From assembly GCA_007126465.1 (NCBI GenBank), contig SLBE01000046.1:1-25490 (forward strand): a DNA stretch of 25,490 nucleotides. The letters run 5' to 3'. Both the position numbers and the translations under genes were made by a program. This stretch comes from Syntrophomonadaceae bacterium. Its GTDB lineage: Bacteria > Bacillota > Dethiobacteria > DTU022. Shown piece by piece: positions 2,778 through 23,421 of the stretch. The notes beneath the pieces are model-generated. The model was not told where the DNA came from. It did no database searches and saw only the letters and a program-made list of their open reading frames with translations. Each line of letters opens with the position of its first letter. The stretch's first letter is position 1.

Positions 2778-2805
2778 GTTTAAAGATAAATAGGAGCTGG
2801 TTTAA

Positions 2806-4766: not shown

Positions 4767-4768
4767 TT

Positions 4769-5500: not shown

Positions 5501-5529
5501 CTATAACCAGTGAAACAGGAGGTTTGTCT

Positions 5530-6870: not shown

Positions 6871-6978
6871 TTACTTAAACATCAAATGCGCAATTTATGT
6901 TGATATGTTACTCCTTGAGCCTGCTTAAGAAAACTGCGCAGTTATAATATATCTATGGTAGCAATGAATATTTGGCGA

Positions 6979-6987
6979 TGTTATAAT
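6979..6987 (+). promoter_or_regulatory. Putative extended -10 promoter upstream of glmS
   Basis: TG-T-TATAAT at 6979-6987. A second TATAAT lies at 6943-6948. No good -35 seen. Confidence 0.4.
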
Positions 6988-7036
6988 ACTTGAGGTTGCA
7001 GTTATTATTTCAGTAAATTTATGCGGGGGTCTGAAT

Positions 7037-8875
7037 ATGTGCGGTATTGTTGGTTATACAGGCTTTAAAGAAGCAAATACAATTCTAATAGATGGCTTAA
7101 AAAAGCTCGAATACCGTGGTTATGACTCTGCCGGCATAGCCCTGCAGCTTGAAGGTAAATTAAAGATCACTAAAGCGGCAGGATCTGTTGCCGACCTCGA
7201 AAGTAAAATGGATGAAGGAGACAGCGAGGTTAAAGTCGGAATAGGCCACACCCGCTGGGCAACCCACGGCCGCCCGACTGACGAAAACGCTCACCCCCAC
7301 TATAGCTGTTGCGAAAAATTTGCCGTTATTCACAACGGTATTATAGAAAATCATCAAGCCCTGCGTCAGTGGTTGAAAGAGGAGACAGGCCACGAATTCC
7401 GATCAGAAACCGATACCGAAGTCCTGGCTCACCTGGTGGAAGAATACTATAAAGATGATCTTCTCGAGGCAGTACGCAATGCGGTTGCCAGGGTGGAAGG
7501 CTCATATGCCATGGTAGTTATATCTTCCCATGAGCCTGAACGCCTGGTTTGTGCCCGCCAGGACAGCCCCCTGATTGTTGGGTTGGGTGAAGATGAAAAC
7601 TTTGTTGCCTCTGACATTCCGGCGCTTTTAGCCCATACAAGAAAAACTAAAATTTTGGAAGATGGTGAGTTTGCATCAATAACCCCCGAACAGGTTGAGA
7701 TTTTTGATGCGGAAGGCAAAAGCATTGATAAGGAAGTATTCGAAATTACCTGGGATATAGAATCAGCCGAAAAGGGCGGCTATGAACATTTTATGCTCAA
7801 GGAAATTATGGAGCAGCCTGCCGTGGCAAAAGAAACTATGCGCCAGCGTATTGACCCTGCCAACGGAAGAGTTAAGCTGGATGAGATCAACTTAACAGAT
7901 GAAGAAATTCAGACGTTAGATAATATATATATTGTAGCCTGCGGCACTGCCTACCATGCCGGTCTTCTTGGTAAAGCCGTGCTGGAAGATCTTGCCGGCA
8001 TACCGGTTGAAGTTGATGTCGCCTCGGAATTTCGCTACCGCAGGCCAATATTTAAAGAGAACCAGCTGGTTATAGTGATCAGCCAGTCCGGTGAAACTGC
8101 CGATACCCTGGCTGCCCTGCGGATGGCCCGGCAAAAAGGGGTAAAGGTTCTGGCCATTACCAATGTAGTAGGCAGCTCTGTATCCCGTGAAGCGGATGAA
8201 GTTCTTTACACCTGGGCTGGTCCGGAAATCGCTGTTGCCTCTACCAAGGCTTACCTGACGCAGCTTGTTGCTCTTTACCTGGTTGCTATTTATTTCGGGG
8301 AATTGAGGGGTTACCTGGCTTCCGAAAAAGCTGATGAGCTGGTCAAAGGCTTAAAAGAGCTGCCCGGGCAGCTGGAACAGGTTCTTTCTGAAGAAAGCCT
8401 GGCTAAGCTGCACAAATACTGCGAGCATCTTTCCAAGTGGGACAACGCTTTCTTTGTCGGGCGCAACCTGGACTACCCGGTAGCCAGGGAAGGAGCCCTT
8501 AAACTAAAAGAGATATCTTATATCCATGCCGAAGCTTATGCTGCAGGGGAACTTAAACACGGGCCGCTGGCCCTGATCGTAGATGGCGTGCCGGTAGTGG
8601 CATTGATAACACAAAAAGCTGTATACGACAAAACCCTGAGCAATATCCAGGAAGTTAATGCCCGTGGTGGCGCCGTATTTGCCATAACCATGGAAGGTAA
8701 TGATGATGTTGCCGAGCAGGTTGAGTCGGTATTTTATCTGCCCCCGGTTAACGATGTCCTGGCTCCGGTCCTGGCAGCAGTGCCGACCCAGTTAATTGCT
8801 TACTATACCGCCCTGGCCCGCGGCAGTTCAGTTGATAAACCCCGTAACCTGGCTAAGAGTGTTACTGTGGAGTAG
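7037..8875 (+). CDS. glmS: Glutamine--fructose-6-phosphate transaminase (isomerizing)
   Basis: MCGIVG N-terminal Cys, EYRGYDSAG, GHTRWATHG, SQSGETADT, ELKHGP and DKPRNLAKSVTVE C-terminus. Confidence 0.98.
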   Translation: MCGIVGYTGFKEANTILIDGLKKLEYRGYDSAGIALQLEGKLKITKAAGSVADLESKMDEGDSEVKVGIGHTRWATHGRPTDENAHPHYSCCEKFAVIHNGIIENHQALRQWLKEETGHEFRSETDTEVLAHLVEEYYKDDLLEAVRNAVARVEGSYAMVVISSHEPERLVCARQDSPLIVGLGEDENFVASDIPALLAHTRKTKILEDGEFASITPEQVEIFDAEGKSIDKEVFEITWDIESAEKGGYEHFMLKEIMEQPAVAKETMRQRIDPANGRVKLDEINLTDEEIQTLDNIYIVACGTAYHAGLLGKAVLEDLAGIPVEVDVASEFRYRRPIFKENQLVIVISQSGETADTLAALRMARQKGVKVLAITNVVGSSVSREADEVLYTWAGPEIAVASTKAYLTQLVALYLVAIYFGELRGYLASEKADELVKGLKELPGQLEQVLSEESLAKLHKYCEHLSKWDNAFFVGRNLDYPVAREGALKLKEISYIHAEAYAAGELKHGPLALIVDGVPVVALITQKAVYDKTLSNIQEVNARGGAVFAITMEGNDDVAEQVESVFYLPPVNDVLAPVLAAVPTQLIAYYTALARGSSVDKPRNLAKSVTVE

Positions 8876-8901: not shown

Positions 8902-8940
8902 ATACGGTATGTTTGTAACAATCAGACATGCCGTATTTGT
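8902..8940 (+). terminator. Likely intrinsic terminator after glmS
   Basis: 14-bp stem ATACGGTATGTTTG / CAGACATGCCGTAT (two G-U pairs), 7-nt loop, followed by a T-rich tract. Confidence 0.65.
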
Positions 8941-9008: not shown

Positions 9009-9081
9009 AATATAAAATTAAGTGCATTAGGTGTACATATGTGCAGGTAAAGGTAGTCATTACCAGGTGGCGGGTGATTAT

Positions 9082-9741
9082 ATGCATACCCATAAAGTTG
9101 ATACAGAGTTAGTTTGTTTCGTTTGTAATAAACTTACAATACACAATATTGAGTATGCTGATAATCGCATGAATAATATTACCTGCAGCACCTGTGGTGT
9201 AAAATATGAACTGGTTATCGAAGTTAGCATTTCTTATCATACTGAAAATATACTGAAACGCATTCTGACTAAACCTCACCGAATTTTAGATGAAACTCAC
9301 ACTGATTTAATTGAATTTATTTATTCTTTGCCACTAAGGGTAGTATCGAAGCCATATAGGCTGGTAAATGAAATTATTGTAGAACCAGGTCAATCTACTG
9401 ATGAATCTAAGAAAAATGAAACAGATATTTTTTGCAGCTACTGTTCAGAGCCCACCTCGCATAGTATTTATTATTTTGACAATAGAATGCAATATTCGGT
9501 TTGCTCTCAATGTGGCTTGAAAATAGAGTTTCTTTGTCTGGTAGTTAAGTACAAGAACTATCCTGAAGAATTAATGCACCGAATTGTAACTAAACCTGAA
9601 CGGATTTTGAAAGAGTTACACAGCCAGCGTTCCAGCTTGTTATACTCCATTCCGATAAGGGTTGTTACTAAGCCTTATCGCCTCCTCAGGGAATTTGTTG
9701 CCAGGATGAAAAATACAACCTCAAACAAAAGCAATTTCTAA
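9082..9741 (+). CDS. Hypothetical protein with two tandem CxxC...CxxC Zn-ribbon + helical repeats
   Basis: Two internal repeats, each CxxC-N19-CxxC followed by RI.TKP.RI and Y-S-[LI]-P-[LI]-R-V-V-[ST]-K-P-Y-R-L. ORF opens at GTG 9031; ATG 9082 is the more likely start. Confidence 0.75.
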   Translation: MHTHKVDTELVCFVCNKLTIHNIEYADNRMNNITCSTCGVKYELVIEVSISYHTENILKRILTKPHRILDETHTDLIEFIYSLPLRVVSKPYRLVNEIIVEPGQSTDESKKNETDIFCSYCSEPTSHSIYYFDNRMQYSVCSQCGLKIEFLCLVVKYKNYPEELMHRIVTKPERILKELHSQRSSLLYSIPIRVVTKPYRLLREFVARMKNTTSNKSNF

Positions 9742-9879
9742 TTAAGCTAACACAAACTTTTCCCCTATTTTCTAATAAGGTAACTAAAACAGGGATCTGT
9801 AAAGCATGATCGCTGCTTTAGAATGTGCAGAAAATGGGGCAATTGGATAATTGAGACATTAAAAGACAGTTTTTTTGTA

Positions 9880-9908
9880 TTGACAAAACAGGCAAGAGTA
9901 ATTATACT
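9880..9908 (+). promoter_or_regulatory. Near-consensus sigmaA promoter of the PTS/corrinoid/dehydrogenase operon
   Basis: TTGACA (9880-9885), N17, TATACT (9903-9908). Confidence 0.8.
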
Positions 9909-9932
9909 GAAAATGAACTAATGATTGACATG

Positions 9933-9946
9933 TGAACAGATGTGCA
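9933..9946 (+). promoter_or_regulatory. Candidate SorC/DeoR-family operator
   Basis: Imperfect palindrome TGAACA-GA-TGTGCA just downstream of the promoter. A SorC-family regulator is encoded in the operon. Confidence 0.55.
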
Positions 9947-10062
9947 ATATCAGATTATTTAGGTTTCTTCCATTCGTTGAACTTTAATAGTGTCATAACA
10001 GCTTAGCATGTGAGGGTTAAGATAAAGCTTTTAACTTTAACAAATTGAGGTGACTTCTTGTT

Positions 10063-10737
10063 ATGATGTTAGCTGATTTGAGGCAGGCAGTAATAGAAAC
10101 TGCCCGTAAGATGAAAGAATACGGGTTAGTTGAGCTGGCTGGGGGAACTGTTTGTGCTGTTGATAAAGAAACCTCACTGGTTGCAATTACTCCAAGTGGA
10201 TTGGAGTATGACAATATGCAGCCGGAAGATGTTTGTCTGGTAGATTATGATTTAAGGTTAGTGGATGGCAGGCTAAAGCCTTCAATTGCTTCAGATATGT
10301 TTACAGAAATAATTAAAGCCCGCCCTGATGTCGGCGCAGTAATACATACTCACTCAAGTTATGCAACTGCATTCGCCTCGTTAAATCGAGAAATCCCTGT
10401 TATTACCACTACGCAAGCTAACCTGGTTGGAGGAACAGTACCTGTAGTAAGGCCGCTCCACCCAGGACCACATACAAAAGAATACTTAGCGAATATTGTA
10501 AAAACTCTCGGAAACGGTAAAGCTGTTAATCTAATGTGTCATGGCCCTATAGTCGTAGGTGATGATCTGGATGACTGTTTAGCTGTTGCTGTAACCATAG
10601 AAAGCACAGCAGCGATAGCAATTAGGGCTGCAGCTCTTGGCAATCCAGTCTGTTTGAACCAGGATGATACAAAGCTTGCCTATGACTATTGCCGTAGAGC
10701 TGTAGGGCAAAAAAAACATAATGAAAGGGGGGAATAA
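10063..10737 (+). CDS. Class II aldolase/adducin-family protein (FucA/AraD-like), atypical active site
   Basis: AITPSG, KPS, RPDVGAVIHTHS (metal HxH) and xHG third His. PSIA in place of PSSE/PSSD. Confidence 0.88.
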   Translation: MMLADLRQAVIETARKMKEYGLVELAGGTVCAVDKETSLVAITPSGLEYDNMQPEDVCLVDYDLRLVDGRLKPSIASDMFTEIIKARPDVGAVIHTHSSYATAFASLNREIPVITTTQANLVGGTVPVVRPLHPGPHTKEYLANIVKTLGNGKAVNLMCHGPIVVGDDLDDCLAVAVTIESTAAIAIRAAALGNPVCLNQDDTKLAYDYCRRAVGQKKHNERGE

Positions 10738-10738
10738 T

Positions 10739-11047
10739 GTGGACCAAAAGTTAATTCTTGTTGTTTGCGGGGCAGGTATTAATACCTCCACTATGGCAGG
10801 GGAATTCATATCGGACGAAATCAGTAAGCGCAAACTTAAAAACGTTAAGGTAAAAACTGTACTTGTTAATGATTTGCCTCGCTATAAAGGTCAAAAGGAT
10901 ATGGCAATTGTTTATATGACTAAGGTTGACACTGATATGGGTGTTCCATCTTTCCAGGGTATGAACTTTCTGATTGGCACGCGTGATACAAAGCTTGAGC
11001 TGTTCGATAAAATCCTTGAATCTTTGGATGTTGAGCAGCAGGGTTAA
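10739..11047 (+). CDS. PTS galactitol-family EIIB component
   Basis: ILVVCGAGINTSTM with phosphorylatable Cys and GatB-like C-terminal F..G. GTG 10739 follows a G-rich RBS (ORF opens at 10721). Confidence 0.85.
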   Translation: MDQKLILVVCGAGINTSTMAGEFISDEISKRKLKNVKVKTVLVNDLPRYKGQKDMAIVYMTKVDTDMGVPSFQGMNFLIGTRDTKLELFDKILESLDVEQQG

Positions 11048-11086
11048 AAAAGAAGCAGTTAAAAAAATGTTTAGGAGGTTTTATCG

Positions 11087-12364
11087 ATGAGTGGAATTTA
11101 TTCTACAATTGTTGCTGGAGTTGATTGGTTTGTAGCCCTTGGTCCTTCCGTAATGATTGCAATTGTTCTCACAGTTCTTGGTACTGCTTTTGGGGCAGGT
11201 TTTTCAAAAAGCCTTCGTGGTGGGATTATTACCGGAGTTGGGTTAGCCGGTCTATTCCTGGTGGTTGACTTAATTGTTGCTGCCCTCTTACCAGCTATTA
11301 ACGCGATGGCTGAAAACTTTAACCTGCAGTTAAGGCTGGTTGATGTGGGCTGGGCTGATGCAGGGATTGCCTGGGGGTGGCCCGGGGTCGCCGGTGTTAT
11401 GCTGGGCATCATTGCTGTAAATATCATAATGGTCCTACTTAAATTAACAAAAACACTGTGGACAGATGTTTGGAGTTACTGGCATGGCCAGGTTTGCGGG
11501 GCATTTGTTTGGGTTGTAACCGGAAGCGTTACACTTGGCATTATCGCTGCAATAATTTACCTGGTTATCGGTAGCCTGTTTTCAGATATTACAGCAAAGC
11601 GCTACCAGGAGTATAATGATATGCCAGGGATTGGAGTGCCCTGCGGCCCTACTGTGCTGGCCAGTGTTTTTGCCATCCCGGTTAGCGCAGCCCTCAATAA
11701 AATTCCTGGAATTAACAAGTTAAACGCTTCACCTGAATCAATCAAGGAAAGGTTCGGGGTTTTCGGGGAAGTATCAGTTATGGGTGCAATAATTGGCCTT
11801 ATTATTGGATTACTTGCAGGCTATGGTGTCGCCGGTGCTTTGGTCCTGTCTATGCAGGTTGCTGCTATCATGCTTATTTTGCCCCGGATGGTCTCAATTA
11901 TTGCGGAAGGTTTAATACCGATCACTATGAAAGTTGCCGAATTCGTGCGTGAACGTTTTAAAGATCGCGAACTGCATGTTGGGGTTGACTGTGCTGTGTT
12001 GTTGGGGCATTCTTCGGTGATGGCTTCAGCTTTAATTCTTTTCCCCCTATCTATTCTGCTGGCTGCAGCACTACCCGGTAATGGAATGCTGCCCATAGCA
12101 AGTCTTGCGCTTATTCCATTTCTGGCTGGAGCGGTTGTACCTTTTACCAGGGGAAATGTTATTCACACCGTGATTATTGTCCTGCTGCTTCTTATTCCTT
12201 ACCTGTATGCAGCTACTAACATGTCTCCTGTTCACACTGAAACCTATGCTCAACTTGGAATGTTTACTGAGGAAATTGAAGGTGGAGCGAGGTTTGCCAG
12301 CTGGGACATGGGTGGAGATCCAATTAGCTGGATAATTAACCAGATCTTCAGGCTTTTTAGCTAA
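11087..12364 (+). CDS. PTS galactitol-family EIIC permease (GatC-like)
   Basis: 425 aa polytopic protein with LGPSVM, DVGW..AGIAWG, TKTLWTDVWSYWH, MLILPRMVSIIAEGLIP and LHVGVDCAVLLGH motifs similar to GatC. Confidence 0.9.
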   Translation: MSGIYSTIVAGVDWFVALGPSVMIAIVLTVLGTAFGAGFSKSLRGGIITGVGLAGLFLVVDLIVAALLPAINAMAENFNLQLRLVDVGWADAGIAWGWPGVAGVMLGIIAVNIIMVLLKLTKTLWTDVWSYWHGQVCGAFVWVVTGSVTLGIIAAIIYLVIGSLFSDITAKRYQEYNDMPGIGVPCGPTVLASVFAIPVSAALNKIPGINKLNASPESIKERFGVFGEVSVMGAIIGLIIGLLAGYGVAGALVLSMQVAAIMLILPRMVSIIAEGLIPITMKVAEFVRERFKDRELHVGVDCAVLLGHSSVMASALILFPLSILLAAALPGNGMLPIASLALIPFLAGAVVPFTRGNVIHTVIIVLLLLIPYLYAATNMSPVHTETYAQLGMFTEEIEGGARFASWDMGGDPISWIINQIFRLFS

Positions 12365-12428
12365 AAGGTAATGTAATATGAGTGTATTCTTCCAGGGTTC
12401 AACCTGGAAGAATACACCTTGAATAAGG

Positions 12429-12902
12429 TTGGTGAAGGATAAGGTGAAATATTTTAACGAAGACTTAATTATGACAGGCCTTCCAGCTGAAAGCAGTGAT
12501 GAAGTGATCAACAGCTTAGTAGGCAAAATGGCAGACAAAGGGTATGTTACCCCTGATTATGCTTTGGAAGTAACCGAAAGGGAAAAAAAACACCCAACCG
12601 GCCTTCCAACCCAGGAGGTTAAAGTAGCAATTCCACATGCCGGTGCAGATAACGTTATAAAGCCTGGTGTTGCTTTAGCCGTCCTAAAAAAACCGGTAGT
12701 ATTTTGCAACATGGAAAACCCTGACCAGGATTTGGATGTCAGTATTGTATTTTTACTGGCCAATAAAGATAGCGGGGATCAATTGAAAGATTTGCAGTCG
12801 CTGACAGGTCTTTTTGCTGATCCATCAATTCTTCAGCGTGTTGTTAAATCCGGCAGTGCAAAAGAAATTGCCGAATTACTTAACCAAAGATTATCTAACT
12901 AG
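12429..12902 (+). CDS. PTS EIIA component (mannitol/fructose-type EIIA_2 fold, GatA-like)
   Basis: REKKHPTGLP..VAIPH (phospho-His), F.NMENP, VFLLA. Exact start uncertain. Confidence 0.9.
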   Translation: MVKDKVKYFNEDLIMTGLPAESSDEVINSLVGKMADKGYVTPDYALEVTEREKKHPTGLPTQEVKVAIPHAGADNVIKPGVALAVLKKPVVFCNMENPDQDLDVSIVFLLANKDSGDQLKDLQSLTGLFADPSILQRVVKSGSAKEIAELLNQRLSN

Positions 12903-12919
12903 GTAAAGGATGTGGAGAA

Positions 12920-14059
12920 GTGTTAACCCCAAGAGAAAGAGTTTTAACAGCTCTTAAACACGAGGAACCTGATCGGGTTCCACTCGGGCTAGGGGCAAGT
13001 GGAGCCAGTGTTACAGATGATGTATACTTTAAATTGAAAGATTACTTTGGTATCGAGGGCGATGTTGAACCATTTCGTTCCGGCCATGGAGATAACATAT
13101 ATGACCCAAGGGTTTTTGATTGTTTAGGGGTGGACTTCAGGCATGTTTTTTTAAGATCTTCTTTAGACTTTAAGCCTCCTGTAAACGAGGATGGAAGCCT
13201 TGTTAATGAATGGGGCGTTGCTGTAAAAAAATATGGCCGTTTCTATGAGTGGGTTAGTCACCCTCTAGCAGAAGCAGATTTATCTGATCTTGATAATTAC
13301 AAGTGGCCTAAGCCATATACGGGGCAACGTCAACGTGGCTTGCAGGATACTGTTCAGGAATACTATCAAAAGAGCGATTTTGCTATAGCTTCTAGGTCAC
13401 CATCTCGAGGTTTTTTTGACCTGGGTATCCAGTTAAGGGGATTTGAGCGCTTTATGACCGATATGGTTCTTGACAAAAAATTCACTCATAAATTTATGGG
13501 TAAATTACTGGAAACTATTATCGGGTTTTATGATGTGCTCTTAGAACAAGCCGGCCCATATATACATATTGTTGAAACCCAGGATGATTACGGGCATCAA
13601 AACTCGCTGTTTTTCTCGCCGGCATTATTCCGTGAAATGATTAAGCCATACCGGGCAGAACTAAATGCTTTTATAAAGAAAAAAGCACCGCAAGCTTCAA
13701 TTTTTATTCACACATGTGGCGCTGTTAGTGAGCTAATCGAGGATTTAATTGATTGTGGTGTTGATGTTGTTAATCCTGTGCAGCCATTGGCTAAAGGTAT
13801 GGAAACGAAAAAACTAAAAGAAAGATTTGGCGGAAAAATTGTGTTTCATGGTGGGATTGATTTACAGAAAGCCCTGGCCGGATCAAAAGAAGATGTTGAG
13901 ATAGAAGTTAAAACCAGGCTTCGAGACCTGGCACCCGGCGGAGGTTATATTCTTTCCCCTGCCAATGTTGTTCAAGATGACGTGCCAGTTGAGAATATAG
14001 TCCTGTTGTTTGACCTGGCCAGGAAGTATGGTCAATACCCTATAGATATACCTGAATAA
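12920..14059 (+). CDS. Uroporphyrinogen-decarboxylase-fold protein, probable corrinoid-dependent methyltransferase (MtaA/CmuA-like)
   Basis: TPRERVLTAL.HEEPDRVP, DDYG.Q..LFFSP..FREMIKPY, HTCG (HxC), GGIDLQ, GGGYILSPAN. Lacks the HemE RQAGRY motif. A corrinoid protein gene is nearby. Confidence 0.8.
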   Translation: MLTPRERVLTALKHEEPDRVPLGLGASGASVTDDVYFKLKDYFGIEGDVEPFRSGHGDNIYDPRVFDCLGVDFRHVFLRSSLDFKPPVNEDGSLVNEWGVAVKKYGRFYEWVSHPLAEADLSDLDNYKWPKPYTGQRQRGLQDTVQEYYQKSDFAIASRSPSRGFFDLGIQLRGFERFMTDMVLDKKFTHKFMGKLLETIIGFYDVLLEQAGPYIHIVETQDDYGHQNSLFFSPALFREMIKPYRAELNAFIKKKAPQASIFIHTCGAVSELIEDLIDCGVDVVNPVQPLAKGMETKKLKERFGGKIVFHGGIDLQKALAGSKEDVEIEVKTRLRDLAPGGGYILSPANVVQDDVPVENIVLLFDLARKYGQYPIDIPE

Positions 14060-14356
14060 GGGGTGTAATTATGAAAAGGGTAACTGTGGCCGGAGGTTCA
14101 TGCGGCTGCTCCAGCCTGCGGCGTGCATCAGAAAAAATTGATCAATATTGTCGGTATAAAGGTATTGAAGTCAAAGTTTCTGTGCATAACTTATGGCAGT
14201 CTGTACACTTAGATCCCAGGGCGGACCTGGTCATACAAATGGTTCCGTTCTTTGAAGGGTTAAGTTGCCCTGTCTTAGATGGCCGTCCCTTTATTAAAGG
14301 CGACGGCGAAGACAACCTGTTACATGAGGTTGCTAAGTTGCTGGCATGAAATACCT
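13981..14356 (+). repeat. Tandem duplication, copy 1 (3' end of URO-D-fold gene + EIIB-like gene)
   Basis: Sequence from cgtgccagttgagaatatag... recurs 403 nt downstream. Confidence 0.95.
14071..14349 (+). CDS. GatB-like PTS EIIB paralog 1 with displaced Cys
   Basis: MKRVTVAGGSCGCSS...CPVLDGRPFIKGDGE aligns to the GatB fold (MKRKIIVACGG...PLVHGMPFISGIG), but has Gly at the catalytic Cys position. Confidence 0.7.
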   Translation: MKRVTVAGGSCGCSSLRRASEKIDQYCRYKGIEVKVSVHNLWQSVHLDPRADLVIQMVPFFEGLSCPVLDGRPFIKGDGEDNLLHEVAKLLA

Positions 14357-14383
14357 TGCAAGTTTAAATTAGTAACCGAACTG

Positions 14384-14756
14384 CGTGCCAGTTGAGAATA
14401 TAGTCCTGTTGTTTGATTTGGCCAGGAAGTATGGTCAATACCCTATAGATATACCTGAATAAGGGGTGTAATTATGAAAAGGGTAATTGTAGCCGGAGGT
14501 TCATGCGGTTCCAGCATGCAGCGTGCATCAGAAAGAATTGATCAATATTGTCAATATAAAGGTATTGAAGTCAAAGTTTCTGTGCATAACTTATGGCATT
14601 CTGTGCACTTAGATTCCAGGGCGGATCTGGTCATACAAATGTTTCCGTTCTTTGAAGAGTTAAACTGCCCCGTTTTAGATGGTCGCCCCTTTATTAAAGG
14701 CGACGGCGAAGAAGATCTGTTGCATGAAGTTGCTGAATTGCTGGCATAAAGTACCT
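14384..14756 (+). repeat. Tandem duplication, copy 2
   Basis: Hand alignment gives about 90% nt identity to 13981-14356, with one 3-nt deletion. Includes the last 25 codons plus stop of the URO-D-fold gene. Confidence 0.95.
14474..14749 (+). CDS. GatB-like PTS EIIB paralog 2 with displaced Cys
   Basis: Paralog of 14071-14349 (13 substitutions + 1 indel by hand count). N-terminus MKRVIVAGGSCGSS. Confidence 0.7.
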   Translation: MKRVIVAGGSCGSSMQRASERIDQYCQYKGIEVKVSVHNLWHSVHLDSRADLVIQMFPFFEELNCPVLDGRPFIKGDGEEDLLHEVAELLA

Positions 14757-14803
14757 ATGATTTGCTTTAACAAACGATGTAATTATATGTGAGGTGTTTA
14801 GAA

Positions 14804-15439
14804 ATGAAACTACTGTCTGAAATTGGCGATAAAATGATAGAAGGTAATGTTGAAGAGCTGATAGACCTGATTAATAAAGCAGAAGCTGAAGGAATTGATC
14901 AAAAGACGATTATTAATGATGGTTTAATTGCTGCCATGCTAAGCCTTGGTGAAAAATTCAAACTCAATGAAGTGTTTATACCTGATGTACTGGTTGCAGC
15001 GGCAGCAATGAAAGAAGCGATTAATCATTTAGGTTTCGATAATATTTCTGATACAGGTTCACCAAAAGGAGTAATTGTAATTGGAACGGTTCGGCATGAC
15101 ATGCATGATATTGGGAAAAACCTGGTTGCTTTACTTATGAACAGCAATGGTTTTCATGTTCATGATCTCGGTGTAGACGTGTCACCGGACAAATTCGTGG
15201 AAGCGGTAAAAGATTACAGTCCTGATATCCTGGCCCTCTCTGCTCTTTTAACAACAACACTGCCTGAAATGAGTGAGGTAATAAAAGCTTTGGGTAATGC
15301 AGGAGTTAGAAAATCTACACGGGTTTTGGTTGGCGGTGCGCCGGTAACTGAAGAATATGCCGATTCGATCGGTGCAGATGGTTATGCGCCTGATGCAACC
15401 TCTGCAGTAACTAAATCTTTAGAGATGATTGATAGCTAA
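14804..15439 (+). CDS. Corrinoid (cobalamin-binding) methyltransferase protein, MtaC/MttC-like
   Basis: N-terminal cap domain (GLIAAM..LGEKF...EVFIPDVL), DxHxxG motif DMHDIGKNLV, SALLTTT, GGAP, IGADGYAPDA. ATG 14804 follows GAGGTG. Confidence 0.93.
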   Translation: MKLLSEIGDKMIEGNVEELIDLINKAEAEGIDQKTIINDGLIAAMLSLGEKFKLNEVFIPDVLVAAAAMKEAINHLGFDNISDTGSPKGVIVIGTVRHDMHDIGKNLVALLMNSNGFHVHDLGVDVSPDKFVEAVKDYSPDILALSALLTTTLPEMSEVIKALGNAGVRKSTRVLVGGAPVTEEYADSIGADGYAPDATSAVTKSLEMIDS

Positions 15440-15498
15440 TACTGCTGCAATGAAGTGTTATCTCAATGGTTGCTGGTCAGAAAGGATTGTGAACAAAC

Positions 15499-16464
15499 AT
15501 GGTTACAAGAAAGCATAACCAGAGATTGTTATCGAAAATTGCTCACATGTATTATGAGCAAGGCTTAAGCCAGCAAATGATTGCAGAAAAATTGAGGACA
15601 TCAAGGCCAACTATAAGCAGAATGCTAGATCAAGCTCGTAAAATGGGCATAGTTAAAATATCTATCCAATCATTTAATGATCGAATAGCTAGTCTTGAAA
15701 GTGAATTAGAAAGCAAATTTTCTCTTAACGAAGTAGCTGTTATTGCAAATGATTCTATGAATAAAGCAGATCAGAAAAAGGCGCTTGGGGCAGTTGCTGC
15801 AGATATATTACAGCGAATTGTTAAAGGATCTGATGTTGTTGGGATTTCATGGGGAACAAGTTTGCGAGAAGTTATTAACGGACTTAAGCCAACACATATT
15901 CCCGGGTTAATAGCAGTTCCACTGGTTGGTGGAATGGGTCAGGATATACGCTATGAGATTCATTCAAACAGCCTTGTAGTAGATTTTTCCAGAAAACTTG
16001 GTTGTCACAGCTGGGTTTTACATGCACCGGCTATTGTTGAGAGAGAAAATTTGAAAGATGCCATCCTGGGCGAGTCTGAAAGTGGAGAAATTATGGAGCA
16101 GGCAAAAAAGGCTAATATTGGCATGGTGGGATTAGGAGCACTTAATGAATCCTCAACTATGATTCAAACCGGGTTCTTCTCTATCGATGATTTTAAAGAA
16201 ATCAGGGAAAAAGGCGCAATCGGCGAAGTCTGCTCATTTTTCTTTGATCGTAATGGTCAAGCTTGTGATATTGATATCAATAAGAGGGTTATCGGGGTAG
16301 GCCCTTATGATTTGAAAAATATTGAAACAGTCATTGCAGTTGTAGCCGGTGACAAAAAGGAAGAGGCTCTTCATGCGGCTCTAAGAGGCCAGTTTATAAA
16401 TATTTTGATTACAGATGAATTGACAGCTGAAAAGGTGCTTTTAATTGAAAGTGCTACCAGGTAG
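15499..16464 (+). CDS. SorC/DeoR-family sugar-phosphate-binding transcriptional regulator
   Basis: N-terminal HTH (IAHMYYEQGLSQQMIAEKLRTSRPTISRML..AR..GIVKI), GISWGTSL, VPLVGG, IGMVGLG and LITDE motifs. Confidence 0.93.
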   Translation: MVTRKHNQRLLSKIAHMYYEQGLSQQMIAEKLRTSRPTISRMLDQARKMGIVKISIQSFNDRIASLESELESKFSLNEVAVIANDSMNKADQKKALGAVAADILQRIVKGSDVVGISWGTSLREVINGLKPTHIPGLIAVPLVGGMGQDIRYEIHSNSLVVDFSRKLGCHSWVLHAPAIVERENLKDAILGESESGEIMEQAKKANIGMVGLGALNESSTMIQTGFFSIDDFKEIREKGAIGEVCSFFFDRNGQACDIDINKRVIGVGPYDLKNIETVIAVVAGDKKEEALHAALRGQFINILITDELTAEKVLLIESATR

Positions 16465-16520
16465 TTGGTTAACCTAAACCTTAATAATGCAAACTATCTT
16501 TATTATATGGGGGGCGTGAA

Positions 16521-17483
16521 ATGAAGCTATCGAAAAAATTAAAGCTAAGAATGTTAGAGCAAATGCTGCTAACTCGCTATTTTGAAGAAAAAGTTGATGA
16601 GCTTTTTGCCAAGGGATTGATCCATGGAACCACTCATCTTTCAATCGGAGAAGAAGCGATGGCGGCAGGACCGGTAAACGCCTTAAAAGCAGATGACTTT
16701 ATGGCCATTACTCACCGTGGGCACGGTTCCTGTATAGCTAAGGGTGCTGATATTAATATCATGATGGCTGAGTTAATGGGCAAAGAAACAGGTTATTGTA
16801 AAGGTAAAGGCGGTTCCATTCATGTTGCTAACCTGGAAGAAGGTAATCTTGGGGCAAACGGTATAGTGGGTGGTGGAATCCCTATTGCTACTGGAGCCGC
16901 ACTTGCACAGAAAATGCAAAACACCGGTAAAATTGTCCTTTGCTTTTTTGGTGATGGTGCATCTAATGAAGGAACATTTCATGAATCACTAAATATGGCC
17001 TCTATCTGGCAGTTGCCTATTGTTTACGTTTGCGTTAATAACATGTATGGGATGTCTACGTGCATTGACGATGTTTGCCCTACAAATAACATTTCTGATC
17101 GTGCATCTGCTTACCAGATGGAAGGTATTACAATCGATGGTAACGATGTTCTTGAGATGTTTGAGGTTACGAATAATGCTGTTATAAAAGCACGTAAGGG
17201 TCAGGGGCCTACGTTGATTGAAGGCTTAACTTACAGGTGGAAAGGTCATTCGAAAAGTGATGCTAACTTGTATCGGACCAGGGAAGAGATAGAAGAGTGG
17301 AAAAAGAAATGCCCAATCAAGCGCTTCCAGACCTATTTAATCGAACAAAAAATCATGTCTGAGGAAGAGATTAAAAAAATGGAAGAATCATCCCTTGAAA
17401 CAATTGAGAGGGCTGTGGAGTTTGCTGAGCAAAGTCCTTATCCCAGCTTAGATGCACTGGAAGAAGACCTCTATGCTTATTAA
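16521..17483 (+). CDS. TPP-dependent 2-oxoacid/acetoin dehydrogenase-like E1 alpha subunit
   Basis: THRGHG, GKGGSIH, TPP-binding GDGASNEG...NN, YRWKGHSKSD. Substrate not determinable from sequence. Confidence 0.92.
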   Translation: MKLSKKLKLRMLEQMLLTRYFEEKVDELFAKGLIHGTTHLSIGEEAMAAGPVNALKADDFMAITHRGHGSCIAKGADINIMMAELMGKETGYCKGKGGSIHVANLEEGNLGANGIVGGGIPIATGAALAQKMQNTGKIVLCFFGDGASNEGTFHESLNMASIWQLPIVYVCVNNMYGMSTCIDDVCPTNNISDRASAYQMEGITIDGNDVLEMFEVTNNAVIKARKGQGPTLIEGLTYRWKGHSKSDANLYRTREEIEEWKKKCPIKRFQTYLIEQKIMSEEEIKKMEESSLETIERAVEFAEQSPYPSLDALEEDLYAY

Positions 17484-17525
17484 TTGGAGTATTTAATATC
17501 TACCATAGACGGAGAGTGATGTTAC

Positions 17526-18506
17526 ATGGAAGAGATAACCTATGGCCAGGCGGTTCGTGATGCTATGAGGGAAGAACTGCAGCGTGATGAAAATGTTTTT
17601 TTGATGGGTGAAGATATAGGGGTCTACGGAGGAGCTTTCGGCATTACCTTTGGTATGATTGATGAGTTTGGACCTGACCGTGTTAGAGATACACCTATAT
17701 CCGAGGCAGCTATAGTAGGAGCTGGTGTCGGGGCAGCGATGGTTGGTATGCGCCCTATCGTTGAGATTATGTTTAGCGACTTCCTTACCCTGGCCAGTGA
17801 TCAAATTATGAATCAAGCTGCAAAAATCCATTATATGCTTGGTGGCAAAGCTAAGGTGCCCCTGGTTGTAAGAACACCAGGTGGTTCCGGAACAGGTGCA
17901 GCTGCTCAGCATTCTCAAAGCCTTGAAGCACTATTTGCCCATATACCGGGCCTTAAAGTAGTTATGCCATCTAGCCCATATGATGTTAAAGGTCTTTTGA
18001 AGACAGCAATTCGTGACGACAACCCTGTTGTTTTTTTTGAACACAAACTATTGTATTCAAAAAAAGGAGAGGTTCCGGATACAGACTATACTGTTCCCTT
18101 CGGCGAAGCAGAGATAAAACGGTCTGGATCAGATATCACAGTTTTTGCAACATCAATCATGGTACACAGGGCTCTCGAAGCAGCGGAGCAGCTGGCAAAT
18201 GAAAATATTAGTGTCGAAGTAATAGATCCAAAAACACTTGTGCCACTGGATACTGAAACCATTGTTAAATCGGTTATAAAGACCGGCCGCCTGATGATTG
18301 TTCAGGAAGCCTGTAAAAGAGGCGGATTTGCCTCTGAAGTTGTAGCAGAGGTTGTTGAAAGTGAAGCTTTTGGTTATTTAGATGCACCGATTACAAGGGT
18401 CGCCGGTAAAAATATTCCCATACCATATTCAAAAAAACTAGAAGCGGCAGCTGTTCCACAGGTAGAAGATATAGTTAAAGCAGTAAAAGAAGAGCTCTTA
18501 CAGTAG
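17526..18506 (+). CDS. TPP-dependent dehydrogenase E1 beta subunit
   Basis: [50 protein letters not shown]. Confidence 0.93.
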
Positions 18507-18518
18507 GGAGGCAGTTTG

Positions 18519-19817
18519 ATGGCAGTTGAAATACTGATGCCCAAGATGGGCATGACAATGGAAGAAGGAACAATTCTTAAGTGGGTTAAACAAATTGGCG
18601 ATGAAATTGTCAAAGGGGAAGTTGTCCTCGAGATTCAGACTGATAAGGTAAAAATGGATGTAGAGGCACCAGCTGATGGAGTGTTATTAAAAATTGTCGC
18701 AGCTGAAGGTTCCGTGGTACCGGTTAATACCCCTATTGCATATATAGGAGAAGCAGGAGAAACTGTAGCTGAAGAAGAGCAACCTGCCAGTGTAGCTGAT
18801 AGCTCATCAGCAGAAACTGCAGAAGAAGTAAAAACTCATGGCCCTGTTAAAGCAACTTCCAGCGTTGATAGTGAAAAATGTAAAGCAACGCCTGCAGCAA
18901 AAAGGATGGCTGCAGAAAAAGGAATTGATTTGCAAAATATAACTCCTGGATCGACTGATGGAATGATTAGGGTAAAAGATCTGGACGCGGTTAAAGCCAC
19001 CCCACTGGCCCAGAAGATTGCTCATGATCAGGGTATAGATCTCAGTGCTGTTAAAGGTAGTGGTGTTCATGGAAAAATCACCAAAGAAGATCTTCTTTCA
19101 GATTCTGCCATAAGAAGTAGTGATGATGAACAAAGCAGTGTAACGCCGCTGGCTGGTTTACGCAAAGTAATTGCTGAACGAATGAGTCTTTCATGGCATG
19201 AAGCTCCTCATGCATTTATCAGCCTTGAGGTGGATATGACTGCAATGGCAAATCTAAGGTCAGAAATACTAAAAGATCTGGAGGAAAAGACCGGGAACAA
19301 AGTTTCATATAACCACCTGTTAATCAAGGTAGTCGCTCGAGCATTAAGAGATAACCCGGCAGTGAATGCCAGGTTCATTGATAATGGAATAGATTTTTCT
19401 GAAGATGTAAATATTGGTGTTGCTGTTGCTGCAGAGGAAGGCTTAATTGTGCCTGTACTGCATAAAGCGGACAAATTAAACATAGAAGAGGTTGTTCTTA
19501 ATACTAATGAACTAATTGAGAAGGCTCGCAATGGTGAACTTGTATTAAAAGAGTTGGAAGGCGGGACTTTTACAATCAGTAATCTTGGTATGTTCGGTAT
19601 TACCATGTTTGGACCGATTTTGAATCCCCCGGAAGTGGGGATCCTCGGTGCAGGGAAAATAATTGACAGTCCGGTAGTGGAAAATGGAAATGTCGTGGTT
19701 AAGCCGATAATGACTTTGTCTTTATCATTTGATCACCGGGCCCTGGATGGAGCACAGGCGTCCCTCTTTTTATCGCGTGTCAGGGATTTAATGGAATCAC
19801 CGGCGAAGTTACTATAA
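18519..19817 (+). CDS. Dihydrolipoamide acyltransferase E2 (one lipoyl domain, two peripheral-subunit-binding domains)
   Basis: Lipoyl motif EIQTDKV, two ATP.A.+.A...GIDL repeats, GGTFTISNLG, catalytic DHRALDG. Confidence 0.93.
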   Translation: MAVEILMPKMGMTMEEGTILKWVKQIGDEIVKGEVVLEIQTDKVKMDVEAPADGVLLKIVAAEGSVVPVNTPIAYIGEAGETVAEEEQPASVADSSSAETAEEVKTHGPVKATSSVDSEKCKATPAAKRMAAEKGIDLQNITPGSTDGMIRVKDLDAVKATPLAQKIAHDQGIDLSAVKGSGVHGKITKEDLLSDSAIRSSDDEQSSVTPLAGLRKVIAERMSLSWHEAPHAFISLEVDMTAMANLRSEILKDLEEKTGNKVSYNHLLIKVVARALRDNPAVNARFIDNGIDFSEDVNIGVAVAAEEGLIVPVLHKADKLNIEEVVLNTNELIEKARNGELVLKELEGGTFTISNLGMFGITMFGPILNPPEVGILGAGKIIDSPVVENGNVVVKPIMTLSLSFDHRALDGAQASLFLSRVRDLMESPAKLL

Positions 19818-19860
19818 AAGAGTAATGGAAATACACAGAGCAATGGAGGACACAGATCAG

Positions 19861-21246
19861 ATGGATTATGATATTTTGGTACTGGGCGGCGGAATAGGTG
19901 GCTATGTTGCTGCAATCAGGGCTGCGAAAGGTGGGGCGAAAGTTGCCCTGGTAGAAAAAAACCATATTGGTGGAACCTGTCTTAATTATGGCTGCATTCC
20001 AACCAAGTCCCTGATACGCAGTGCAGAAGTACTAGATACAGTAAAAAATGCAAGTGATTTTGGTGTAAAAGCTACCGGGGCAGAGCTAGACCTGGAATCG
20101 GTAATTAAACGTAAAGACAATATTGTAAAAATGTTGACTGAAGGTGTTGAAGGCCTGTTAAATGCCAACCAGATTACCATTTATAACAGCATGGGTAATG
20201 TTAAGGATGCCAGGACAGTTGAAGTAAAAGATAGCAGCGGAAAGAGCTTAGACCTTACTACTAATAAATTAATTATTGCAACAGGTTCAGTAACAACAAT
20301 TCCGAATATTCCTGGCGTGGATTTGCCAGGTGTTATAACCAGCAAGGAAGTGTTGAATATAACAGATCTGCCTGAAGAGGTTTGTATCGTTGGCGGAGGA
20401 GTAATAGGATTAGAGTTTGCTTACATACTAAATGCTTTCGGGGCAAAGGTTACCGTTTTGGAATTATTGCCCGAAATATTACCTAAAGCTGAACGTGAGC
20501 TGGTCAATTATTTGCTGGATTCTTTTCGGGAAAAAGGCATTAGCATTCTTACCAAGGCCCAGGTTAATGCTATTGAAGAGAGTGAACCCGGTATGAATGT
20601 TATGTTTTACCACAACGATGAAGAAAAAACGCTTCAGTCCGGTTTAGTTTTAATGGCGGTGGGCCGTGAACCCAACCTTGCAGGTCTGGATGCTCTTAAT
20701 TTAAAAAGAAATTCAAGTAAGGGGATAATCGTAAATAGCTCCATGGAAACTTCCTTGCCTGGAGTTTATGCTATCGGAGATGTAACAGGTGGTGTCCAAC
20801 TGGCACATGTTGCAACTGCTCAGGGTATAGTAGCTGCAGAAAATGCTCTTGGTGAAGAAGCGAAATTTAATAGCAACAGCATCCCTTATTGCATTTATAG
20901 CAAACCTGAAATGGCCTGGGTAGGCTTAACGGAAGAAGAAGCAAAAGAAAAGTATGGCCGGATAAAAGTAGGCCGGTTTCCTTTTACCGGTAGTGGTAAG
21001 GCCATGGTTTATGGTGATACCTCCGGCCTGGTTAAGATGATTATAGATGAGAAATATGGTGAAATTGTCGGTCTACATCTAATTGGGCCCGAAGCGACCA
21101 ATATGATTGCCGAAGGTGTTTTGGCCAGAATGTTGGAAGCAACAGTGATTGAGCTGGCAGCTACGATTCATCCCCATCCAACGTTGTCTGAAGTTTTAAT
21201 GGAAGCTGCTCATATGACGCTTGACCAGGGCATTCATTATATTTAG
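19861..21246 (+). CDS. lpdA: Dihydrolipoyl dehydrogenase E3
   Basis: GGGIGG FAD site, redox disulfide GGTCLNYGCIPTK, GGGVIG NAD site, HPHPTLSE. ATG 19861 follows GGAGG (ORF opens at 19825). Confidence 0.95.
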   Translation: MDYDILVLGGGIGGYVAAIRAAKGGAKVALVEKNHIGGTCLNYGCIPTKSLIRSAEVLDTVKNASDFGVKATGAELDLESVIKRKDNIVKMLTEGVEGLLNANQITIYNSMGNVKDARTVEVKDSSGKSLDLTTNKLIIATGSVTTIPNIPGVDLPGVITSKEVLNITDLPEEVCIVGGGVIGLEFAYILNAFGAKVTVLELLPEILPKAERELVNYLLDSFREKGISILTKAQVNAIEESEPGMNVMFYHNDEEKTLQSGLVLMAVGREPNLAGLDALNLKRNSSKGIIVNSSMETSLPGVYAIGDVTGGVQLAHVATAQGIVAAENALGEEAKFNSNSIPYCIYSKPEMAWVGLTEEEAKEKYGRIKVGRFPFTGSGKAMVYGDTSGLVKMIIDEKYGEIVGLHLIGPEATNMIAEGVLARMLEATVIELAATIHPHPTLSEVLMEAAHMTLDQGIHYI

Positions 21247-21289
21247 CAGTTGAAACAAATATTATTGACCCTTGAAAGGATGACAGAAA

Positions 21290-21574
21290 ATGCAACAAAA
21301 TTCTGTAGAAGTACTTATTACGAATAAATCTGGGCTTCACGCAAGGCCCGCATCTCTTTTTGTACAGGAAGCAAATAAGTATAAATCCGAAATTGAGATA
21401 AATTGCAAAGACAAAACAGTTAATGCAAAAAGTATACTTAGTATACTTGGCTTGGGTGCCAATAAAGGAAGCACAATCGTTATTAGTGCTGAAGGTGAAG
21501 ATGCAGGAGTTGCTTTAAGTGGCCTAAAAGAATTTTTGGAAAAAGAATTACCCAGGGTGGATGGTGCGGAATGA
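21290..21574 (+). CDS. ptsH: Phosphocarrier protein HPr
   Basis: GLHARPA (His15) and NAKSILSIL (Ser46) motifs. Confidence 0.93.
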   Translation: MQQNSVEVLITNKSGLHARPASLFVQEANKYKSEIEINCKDKTVNAKSILSILGLGANKGSTIVISAEGEDAGVALSGLKEFLEKELPRVDGAE

Positions 21575-23301
21575 TTACTCTTAATGGAATTGGTGCATCG
21601 CCGGGGATAGTTGTTGGCAAAGCAGCTTTGATCAGGGATAGGGAAATCGAGCTGACACATGAGAAAATTATGCCAGAGGAGACAGCTCAGGAAATTGAGC
21701 GCTTCGATGCTGCCATTACAAAAGCTAAAGAGGAGATAAAGGTAATTAGGGATCAAGCTGAGCAGAATATTGGCAGTGAAGAAGCAGCTGTCTTTACTGC
21801 ACACTTGATGATATTAGATGATCCTGAATTGGTGCAGGGTGTTGTATCAAAAATCAAGAATGAGCTGATCAGTGCGGAAAATGCTGTTAATGAGGTTGTT
21901 AAAAATTATATAGAAATGCTGTCAGCTTTAGATGATGAATATATAAAAGCCAGGGTTGCCGACATCGAAGATATCGGTCAGCGTTTGCTATTGTTGCTTA
22001 CTGGTACCGAGAAAACTAACGTTGAATTAGACAAAGAAACAATCTTAATAGCGAAAGATCTGAGTCCATCAGACACTGCACAATTAAACGCTGATTTAAT
22101 CCTTGCTTTTGCAACGCAGTCCGGTTCACGTTCTTCCCATACAGCTATTCTTGCCCGATGCCTTGGAATTCCTGCCGCGGTAGGTCTTGGAGAAAAGCTA
22201 TTGGAGGTAGTGACTGAGGGTGACATAATTATTGTTGATGGCAATGATGGAGTTGTCATAGTAGATCCTGACCAAACGGTGCTTAAAGATTACCAAAGAA
22301 AAATTGAGATGGAAGAAAAAGAAAAGTTGCGTCTTACGGAATATAAGCATAAGTCAGCGACTACTGCAGATGGGCTGAGAATAAAAATAATGGGAAATAT
22401 TGGTGCAGTTAATGAAGCAGATGCTGTTTTGAAAAATGGAGGAGAAGGTTCAGGGCTATTTCGGACAGAGTTTCTTTACATGGAAAATGAAGAATCTCTA
22501 CCTTCGGAAGAACAACAGTACCTGTCATATAAAGCGGTGGCTGAGAAGATGAATGGTAAAGAAGTGGTAATTCGCACACTTGATATTGGTGGTGATAAAG
22601 AGCTTGCATCACTCAATCTGGCATGTGAAGAAAACCCTTTTCTTGGTTACAGAGCTATAAGAATATGTTTAGACCGGGAAGATATTTTTAAGCCTCAACT
22701 TAGGGCTATTTTAAGAGCGAGTGTTTTTGGTGATTTAAAAGTAATGTTTCCTATGATCGCAGGCCTTGAGGAATTAAGAAAGGCCCTGTATTTCTTGAAT
22801 GAAGCCAAGCAAGAATTGAAAAATGAAGAAATTCCATTCAAACATGATATTGAAGTTGGGATTATGATCGAGGTGCCTTCTGCTGCTTTAATGGCAGACA
22901 CACTGGCTAAAGAGGTTGACTTTTTTAGTATTGGCACCAATGATCTCGTTCAGTATACACTGGCTGCAGATCGAAATAATGAGAAAGTGTCAGCAGCATA
23001 TAACCATTATCATCCCGCTGTTTTAAAGCTGATAAAAATTGTTGCAGATGCTGCTCATAATAATGGTATATGGGTGGGGATGTGCGGTGAAGCATCCGGA
23101 GATGAGCTTTTGCTGCCACTTTGGGTTAGCTTTCGTTTTGATGAATTGAGTATGAGTTCTGTTTCTATCCTTAAAGCAAAAGAAATTATTAGCTTATGGA
23201 GTGCTAAAGAAGCAGAACTGCTATCAGAAAAAGTATTAACTGCAGATACAGCTACCGAAGTTAAACAGCTTTTAGCATCAGCTTCAAAAGATAACTCATA
23301 A
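21571..23301 (+). CDS. ptsI: PTS Enzyme I (PEP-protein phosphotransferase)
   Basis: GIGASPG, SHTAILAR (phospho-His), GLFRTEFLY, RTLDIGGDK, ENPFLGYRAIR, FSIGTNDL, GMCGE. Confidence 0.96.
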   Translation: MITLNGIGASPGIVVGKAALIRDREIELTHEKIMPEETAQEIERFDAAITKAKEEIKVIRDQAEQNIGSEEAAVFTAHLMILDDPELVQGVVSKIKNELISAENAVNEVVKNYIEMLSALDDEYIKARVADIEDIGQRLLLLLTGTEKTNVELDKETILIAKDLSPSDTAQLNADLILAFATQSGSRSSHTAILARCLGIPAAVGLGEKLLEVVTEGDIIIVDGNDGVVIVDPDQTVLKDYQRKIEMEEKEKLRLTEYKHKSATTADGLRIKIMGNIGAVNEADAVLKNGGEGSGLFRTEFLYMENEESLPSEEQQYLSYKAVAEKMNGKEVVIRTLDIGGDKELASLNLACEENPFLGYRAIRICLDREDIFKPQLRAILRASVFGDLKVMFPMIAGLEELRKALYFLNEAKQELKNEEIPFKHDIEVGIMIEVPSAALMADTLAKEVDFFSIGTNDLVQYTLAADRNNEKVSAAYNHYHPAVLKLIKIVADAAHNNGIWVGMCGEASGDELLLPLWVSFRFDELSMSSVSILKAKEIISLWSAKEAELLSEKVLTADTATEVKQLLASASKDNS

Positions 23302-23421
23302 CCATCATTTTGTTACATATTATTGGTAGCCATCAAAGCTCAAGTTAGCTTCTATATTATTTGATTTTTAATCCCGTAGTAAAATAAGCACTTTTCAAAC
23401 TAGCAAATGGAGGCACAGTTA

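Follow-up and report, generated by a model that had tools for sequence, protein, structure and literature searches.

A GatB-derived EIIB variant with a shifted cysteine, encoded in tandem in a PTS operon with a URO-D/corrinoid module

EIIB proteins of the phosphotransferase system (PTS) are defined by one cysteine. The two small genes described here code for proteins in which this cysteine is replaced by glycine and another cysteine appears three residues further on. They lie in a 25,490-nucleotide stretch of DNA from a Syntrophomonadaceae bacterium (positions 1 to 25,490 of contig SLBE01000046.1, assembly GCA_007126465.1), which is called the window throughout. Both are on the + strand. Copy 1, at 14071-14349, codes for 92 amino acids (aa) with the loop AGGSCGCSS, whose extra cysteine makes it the CGC form, and copy 2, at 14474-14749, codes for 91 aa with the loop AGGSCGSS. 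A first-pass annotation had read VAGGSCGCSS and VAGGSCGSS from two EIIB-like genes at these positions, and the open reading frames (ORFs) and their translations agree with it. The closest described relative is GatB (5gqs and 1tvm; NCBIfam NF007643). The small proteins are like GatB in length and fold, in belonging to a Gat-type PTS operon, and in the residues Gln38, Glu42, Asp51, Pro66, G-x-PF (P72-F73), and GxGE (G78-E79), which are retained in their family. Unlike GatB, they have Gly8 for phospho-Cys8, an invariant Cys at the place of Gly11, no T-S-T run, and no helix 2 in the model. They also have a new Trp41 and Lys/Arg71, are encoded by extra genes beside a canonical EIIB gene, and score below the Pfam and NCBIfam cut-offs.

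Two other described systems come close, one by fold and one by gene neighbourhood. The EIIB(Gat)-like domains of PRD regulators, namely, MtlR, Mga, and AtxA (5way), are a case of the EIIB(Gat) fold being reused outside sugar phosphorylation, and in some of them a Cys matters for regulation or dimerisation (PMC8560693). These are, however, C-terminal domains of large DNA-binding proteins, whereas the variant is a free-standing protein of 91-92 aa without a helix-turn-helix or PRD domain. The methyltransferases MtaA, MtbA, and MtsA with their corrinoid proteins are comparable in that genes of this kind, for a URO-D-fold enzyme with H-x-C and for an MtgC/MtbC-like corrinoid protein, are neighbours of the small genes. 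They differ in that alignment to 4ay7 placed Asn at the third zinc Cys of MtaA in the window enzyme, the H-x-C being kept, and in that the operon has no second methyltransferase gene. To our knowledge, no methylcobamide:thiol methyltransferase system has been described with an EIIB-fold subunit; a literature search found none, and it found no paper that mentions a GGxCG protein derived from EIIB.

A search of both small proteins with PF02302 (PTS_IIB) gave no match at E<=1, NF007643 scored them at 21.2 and 14.9 bits (E 3e-4 and 0.027) with a cut-off of 95, and phmmer against the PDB matched GatB alone at E about 1. Profile methods nonetheless gave homology. A profile of the small-protein family retrieved canonical GatB (VACGTGIATS) from other genomes over its full length at E 6e-17 to 1e-10, and when 43 family members were aligned to 13 canonical GatB proteins with hhalign, the probability was 99.4% and E 2.6e-21 over 93 gapless columns, in which canonical Cys8 falls on Gly8 of the family and canonical Gly11 on Cys11. 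The AlphaFold2 (AF2) model built on the family alignment (pLDDT 95, pTM 0.86) has the four-stranded parallel alpha/beta fold of EIIB proteins (~90-100 residues), as judged with AF2, Foldseek, and VIA. Its best match was GatB 5gqs (Foldseek E 7.5e-5, TM 0.76; VIA Z 11.3, rmsd 2.3 A over 90 residues), followed by the EIIB-like domain of MgaSpn (5way, Z 10.8), PtxB, IIB-Mtl, and IIB-Lac, with IIB-cellobiose among the Foldseek top matches. The AF2 models of the variant and of canonical GatB have equal boundaries of strand 1 and helix 1 (E2-8, H12-28), so Cys11 would still be at the anion-friendly N-terminus of the helix. Helix 40-46 of canonical GatB, which is helix 2, is missing from the model of the variant, and this segment now holds Trp41.

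Thus, the likeness to GatB put forward in the first-pass annotation stands by profile, by hhalign, and by predicted fold, though not by a search with the PTS_IIB model, and on these alignments and models the small proteins have to be regarded as unambiguous, true homologues of GatB-type EIIB. At the level of structure we consider this finding solid. What did not hold was the view of them as close paralogues of the operon's own EIIB, because BLASTP gave no alignment with that protein. They are best filed as an EIIB-derived variant rather than as EIIB because three features of EIIB that were tested fail in them: the curated family scores (PF02302 and NF007643) are not reached, in 41/41 members strand 1 has Gly at its C-terminal end instead of the phosphorylatable Cys, and the hydroxyls T14-S15-T16 of the GatB phosphate loop have become (T/S/N)(T/K/S)M.

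Residues were counted over 43 aligned family members, 41 of which cover the loop site. Gly8, which is new and stands in place of the canonical phospho-Cys, Gly9, and the new invariant Cys11 are in all 41, and Gly12 is in 40 of them, giving the motif GGxCG. The replacement of the phospho-Cys by Gly with a Cys three residues on, which had been noticed in the window, is therefore borne out by these 41 members as well as by the hhalign columns. Cys11 is just before helix 1 within this Gly-rich loop. Outside the loop, Trp41 (43/43) and Lys/Arg71 (42/43) are new, and these two residues together with Pro58 (41/43), all invariant or nearly so, are on the same face as Cys11. Pro72 is conserved in 40/43, and Met15, in 38/43, replaces part of the GatB hydroxyl run. 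Identity within the family falls to about 25%, yet GGxCG and Trp41 stay near-absolute. Arg17, which gives C-X5-R, is found in 24/43 members including both window copies and is not family-wide. Two other cysteines had been pointed out as a shared feature, Cys26 (in QYC) and Cys65 (in CPV), but these are in only 27/43 and 35/43 members and Cys11 alone is invariant in the family. A metal or Fe-S site made from Cys11, Cys26, and Cys65 was considered and rejected because Cys26 and Cys65 are not conserved; Cys11 would be at one end of the sheet and these two at the other, to judge by their positions in the secondary structure.

In a maximum-likelihood tree a single branch, with support of 100/100, lay between the 43 variants and the 14 canonical proteins, which is consistent with the cysteine shift having arisen once. 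The shifted Cys was in none of the canonical EIIBs from the 27 genomes with a GatB-type match in a sample of 401 genomes of the phylum. A search with one protein against 1.8 billion proteins gave 12 representative clusters (50% identity, E<=1e-3), and a profile search against 5.8 billion proteins gave about 50 clusters (90% identity, E<=1e-6). None of these clusters has a Pfam domain and every named one is "hypothetical". The named sources include metagenome-assembled genomes of Bacillota, Clostridium sp. chh4-2, a cultured human faecal isolate (PMC5824015), and Gottschalkiaceae strain SANA (PMC11237446). The variant is in 2 of the 149 genomes of the class, which are all of its genomes, and in these and the 401 phylum genomes no carrier was found beyond G459, a genome of the same genus as that of the window. 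The scan of genome contigs gave only the G459 locus, L003, and the metagenome scan gave only contigs L004 and L005. No family member was found in a scan of viral contigs, and a weak search among longer proteins found no fused or longer homologue.

The two window genes arose by duplication of a 403-bp unit that begins inside the URO-D gene. Pairwise DNA alignment places the first unit at 13981-14356 (+), comprising the 3' end of the URO-D gene, the Shine-Dalgarno sequence, and copy 1, and the second in tandem at 14384-14756 (+), with 92% column identity. Because the unit begins inside the URO-D gene, the second one starts with a non-coding relic of the URO-D 3' end (~78 nt, ~14384-14462), which now separates the two small genes, agrees with the original at 88/90 positions, and was picked up as a broken match to URO-D. 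Since 8% of bases differ between the copies and there is a 3-nt indel, they are not an assembly artefact. The proteins are 85% identical, both frames are intact, and both genes are preceded by an identical Shine-Dalgarno-like GGGGTG. Over 91 codons copy 1 and copy 2 have dN/dS = 0.23 with dS 0.28, and therefore both are constrained by purifying selection. The relic is far more conserved than the synonymous sites of the adjacent duplicated genes, a hint that gene conversion has taken place or that the upstream region is under selection. In a second assembly, one 8.5-kb contig also codes for two such proteins, P0025 (92 aa, with the same CGC insertion) and P0002 (91 aa, without it). The paralogues within a genome are closer to each other than the CGC forms are between genomes, which suggests concerted evolution in which the difference in the loop, CGC versus CG-S, would have been retained. 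The contig of G459 is broken exactly at the start of the second duplication unit.

The small genes are part of a single long array of + strand genes without a convincing internal terminator, with 9880-9908 as the best promoter-like site and, upstream of it, a strong terminator at 8902-8936. The order begins with a class II aldolase or L-ribulose-5-P 4-epimerase-like gene (10063-10737; PF00596 and NCBIfam), the canonical EIIB (10721-11047; PF02302, E 1.8e-5), whose intact VCGAGINTS had been correctly recognised before, EIIC of the galactitol type (11087-12364; PF03611, E 9e-67, and TIGR00827), EIIA (12429-12902; PTS_EIIA_2, PF00359, E 5e-29), and the MtaA/CmuA-like URO-D-fold enzyme (12920-14059; PF01208, E 4e-26). 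Copy 1 begins 11 nt past the URO-D gene. After copy 2 come the corrinoid (B12-binding) protein of MtgC/MtbC type (14789-15439; PF02310, PF02607, and NCBIfam), a SorC-type sugar-binding regulator (15499-16464; PF04198, E 4e-71), the E1 alpha, E1 beta, E2, and E3 genes of a complex like pyruvate dehydrogenase (PDH) or acetoin dehydrogenase (16521-21246), and HPr and Enzyme I (21290-23301). E1 alpha was named by NCBIfam and HPr by PF00381, whereas E1 beta, E2, and E3 were assigned by position and by the Pfam matches of their counterparts in L003 and L005, and Enzyme I by length, position, and the Pfam matches of its counterpart in L005, and not by a family search on the window genes. The start of the corrinoid gene is more likely the ATG at 14804, which has GAGGTG 8 nt upstream, than the GTG at 14789 chosen by the ORF finder. 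The HPr (PF00381) and the EIIB (PF02302) of the operon are the sole ones detected in this 79%-complete genome, and the PTS is therefore self-contained; together with the enzymes (10063-23301) it looks like a self-contained, patchily distributed catabolic island. Neither an isomerase nor a kinase gene is in this PTS-type operon. Elsewhere in the genome there are genes for further corrinoid proteins, for a RACo-type activator, and for a pterin-binding protein.

The variant can be read in its gene context in the window, in G459/L003 of the same genus, and in the metagenome contigs L004/L005, which amounts to two independent contexts. G459 (79-88% identity) has the small gene directly before the corrinoid gene, followed by SorC and E1. 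L004 and L005 are from a different lineage, the small protein having 43-47% identity. The order in L005 is E1 beta, E2, E3, URO-D, lipoyl synthase, class II aldolase, EIIB, EIIC-Gat, and EIIA, and then the small gene, which starts 4 nt past EIIA, NifS, Enzyme I, HPr, and a regulator with a PocR domain in place of the SorC regulator of the window. The L005 URO-D protein is a full-length orthologue of that of the window (41%). Thus, both contexts are operons with a complete Gat-type PTS and a URO-D-fold enzyme, in which the gene set recurs and the immediate neighbours of the small gene differ. Elsewhere, too, the variant is found with genes of the methyltransferase module, namely, beside the corrinoid gene in G459 and in one operon with the URO-D gene in L005, but there is no corrinoid gene on the L005 contig. 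In the same way, the placement between the URO-D and corrinoid genes rather than with EIIA describes the window and does not describe L005. The lipoyl synthase LipA (5135-5998) and the NifS-type cysteine desulfurase (9156-10289) stand in L005 amid the PTS, URO-D, and E1-E3 genes, where they presumably supply the lipoylation of E2. A sulfur-carrier reading of the small protein, prompted by the cysteine desulfurase beside it, is weakened because the radical-SAM protein of L005 is LipA and NifS most simply serves this lipoylation.

Orthologues of the URO-D enzyme (35-47% identity) occur in about 10% of the 401 phylum genomes. Five of their loci were examined, and these are of the type ABC transporter, fucose-isomerase-like, GFO/MocA, and PFK, or SorC with an FGGY kinase, or transketolase-like with a corrinoid gene. 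No GGxCG gene is in any of these five neighbourhoods, which are non-PTS clusters, and for this reason the small protein tracks the PTS-linked version of the cluster and not the URO-D enzyme as such. The closest URO-D orthologues are in ABC-sugar-transporter clusters with fucose-isomerase-like, GFO/MocA, PFK, or FGGY genes and often have no corrinoid gene nearby. Small ORFs between the URO-D and corrinoid genes of locus L048 are unrelated to the small proteins. In the widespread clade to which the URO-D enzymes of the window, L005, and L031-L044 belong, the H-x-C is kept and Asn or His is at the position of the third zinc Cys of MtaA. The idea that Cys11 completes the zinc site of the URO-D enzyme in trans was rejected because orthologues without a small protein have the same H-x-C...(N/H) pattern.

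We tentatively favour, while stopping short of calling it probable, the reading that the small protein is a phospho-acceptor or sensor on a side branch that the operon's EIIA would feed. It would have left the relay from EIIA over EIIB to the sugar bound by EIIC, which would be left to the canonical EIIB of the operon, and yet would still be a member of the PTS. Docking on EIIA~P would be through the ancestral residues Gln38, Glu42, G-x-PF, and GxGE, and Cys11 would accept the phosphoryl group from EIIA~P or sense it. The small protein may then report the state of the PTS or of transport, or pass the phosphate, to a cytoplasmic partner from the same operon, most likely the adjacent URO-D/corrinoid methyl-transfer module, and where CGC and CG-S paralogues are retained they may act as a pair. 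A role as phosphorylation sensor seems plausible because the family has been seen only in PTS-type clusters and because its gene is directly after EIIA in L005. The more general proposal of the first-pass annotation, that EIIB folds were repurposed in a methyltransferase-bearing PTS operon, is supported by homology, fold, conservation, purifying selection, and recurrent association.

Several observations weigh against a phosphate-linked role. The residue that defines EIIB, the phospho-Cys, is lost and the T14-S15-T16 run is replaced. The Gly11 of canonical proteins, which is the Cys of the variant, is normally required for the phosphate loop. The second Cys (CGC) that one paralogue keeps speaks for a thiol chemistry and not for one with phosphate. 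The place of the gene is, in two lineages, between the URO-D and corrinoid genes and not by EIIA, and the readable contexts are few.

A phosphate-independent thiol partner of the URO-D/corrinoid module is another reading, which we regard as possible but not likely. Here Cys11 would be a thiolate of low pKa at the N-terminus of the helix, ringed by Trp/Phe, that serves in redox, metal, or methyl handling, for example by protecting or positioning the corrinoid or metal site. In the window the small genes have the URO-D gene on one side and the corrinoid gene on the other, in G459 the corrinoid gene follows directly, the CGC dithiol form is kept in one paralogue of two genomes, the new conserved residues are an aromatic, Met-rich set, and the metal site of the URO-D enzyme is atypical. 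However, URO-D orthologues with the same H-x-C...N/H site occur in non-PTS clusters without the small protein, and in L005, where the contig has no corrinoid gene, the small gene follows EIIA. Moreover, a protein as methyl acceptor would be a dead end in catabolism, a stoichiometric protein acceptor in a catabolic pathway is unlikely, and for corrinoid reduction a RACo activator is encoded elsewhere in the genome. A bolder proposal, which we hold to be rather doubtful, joins the two chemistries: the GGxCG proteins would be small EIIB-derived thiol proteins of a new kind that physically couple the PTS to B12-dependent methyl transfer through a covalent intermediate on Cys11, S-phospho or other, and so gate or join the demethylation of the imported sugar phosphate. 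If true, PTS signalling and corrinoid chemistry would be linked in a way that has no described precedent.

The absence of isomerase and kinase genes from the operon raises the question whether the small protein is itself a Cys enzyme acting on the imported sugar phosphate, either an isomerase/epimerase like RpiB/LacAB or a phosphatase with a CX5R loop, that supplies the step done by the fucose-isomerase-like enzyme in the free-sugar versions of the cluster. The ABC-type clusters with an orthologous URO-D gene do have fucose-isomerase-like and PFK/FGGY genes. The C-G-(T/S) loop is at a helix N-terminus, Glu42 and Lys/Arg71 are conserved, both window copies contain C-X5-R, and the tandem paralogues recall the pairing of LacA with LacB. 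The low-molecular-weight (LMW) phosphatases and ArsC have a related Rossmann-like fold with a Cys at the start of helix 1, and the second loop Cys of copy 1 recalls their Cys pairs. But ArsC (3t38) matches at only Z 8.9, a level shared with many receiver domains and within the generic Rossmann-like background, no equivalent of the general-acid Asp was identified, Arg17 is limited to part of the family, and descent from GatB is clear. There was no match to the PF02502 or LMW-PTP models at E<=1. RpiB/LacAB, which has a five-stranded fold with the catalytic Cys after strand 3, is not among the fold matches listed, although some similarity in fold is still conceivable, and the resemblance to it is one of logic only. 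The argument from a missing step is weak. We consider such an enzyme improbable.

A non-catalytic adaptor or decoy is about equally improbable in our view. By binding EIIA, EIIC, or a regulator it would adjust transport or keep cytoplasmic enzymes at the permease, in the manner of the EIIB(Gat)-like multimerisation domains of Mga/AtxA. The loss of the canonical Cys and a fold that is closest to GatB and the Mga domain are in keeping with it, and there is precedent for non-phosphorylated EIIB-like domains that serve in dimerisation (PMC8560693). Against this, the invariance of GGxCG and Trp41 in a family that diverges to ~25% identity suggests chemistry over docking, and the regulator that goes with it is not the same at each locus, being of SorC type in the window and a PocR-domain protein in L005.

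It is unlikely that the small proteins are ordinary second EIIBs, phosphorylated on the shifted Cys and feeding the same EIIC so that only transport capacity is gained. Homology to GatB and membership in a PTS operon would allow this, and the duplication would fit a dosage effect, but a canonical EIIB is already in the operon in both lineages, the variants form a separate, long-branched clade with a conserved surface of its own and without helix 2, and the shift is in no canonical EIIB of the 27 genomes with a GatB-type match. That they are decaying, functionless duplicates, for which the lack of a Pfam match and the origin of one copy from a duplication that left a gene fragment could be cited, is most improbable in view of the dN/dS of 0.23, the intact frames and Shine-Dalgarno sequences, the ~50 clusters with an invariant motif, and the pLDDT of 95.

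The clade as a whole retains the EIIB fold, but its cysteine has moved and the surface around it has been rebuilt, which makes the clade a clean example from nature of an active site that has migrated. It is tied to operons of an uncharacterised type, with a complete PTS, a URO-D/corrinoid module, and a PDH-like complex, that may represent an undescribed anaerobic route for methylated sugars or polyols. The role of the small protein would tell either whether B12-dependent enzymes can be under the control of PTS phosphorylation or whether a new thiol chemistry can evolve on the EIIB scaffold, and some 50 clusters of "hypothetical" proteins would gain a name from it.

Some minor observations were made in the rest of the window, in which an Rfam search found no RNA family. 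Directly after Enzyme I, at 23407-24102 (+), is a gene for an MtnX-like HAD-IB phosphatase (TIGR01489, 82.8 bits with a cut-off of 81.55), which may or may not belong to the operon, and the class II aldolase-family gene has a weak match to MtnB. A methylthio-sugar is conceivable as the substrate of the operon. Between the terminator of glmS and the promoter-like site of the operon, at 9031-9741 (+), there is an ORF of 236 aa whose two halves resemble each other and both have a zinc-ribbon-like CxxC...CxxC; it gave only weak matches to zinc-ribbon Pfam models. Further upstream, genes for LigB/Memo-like, AMMECR1, and radical-SAM proteins are in a row at 1345-3822 (+), forming an AmmeMemoRadiSam triad, and are followed at 3933-8875 by cdaA, a ybbR-like gene, glmM, and glmS.

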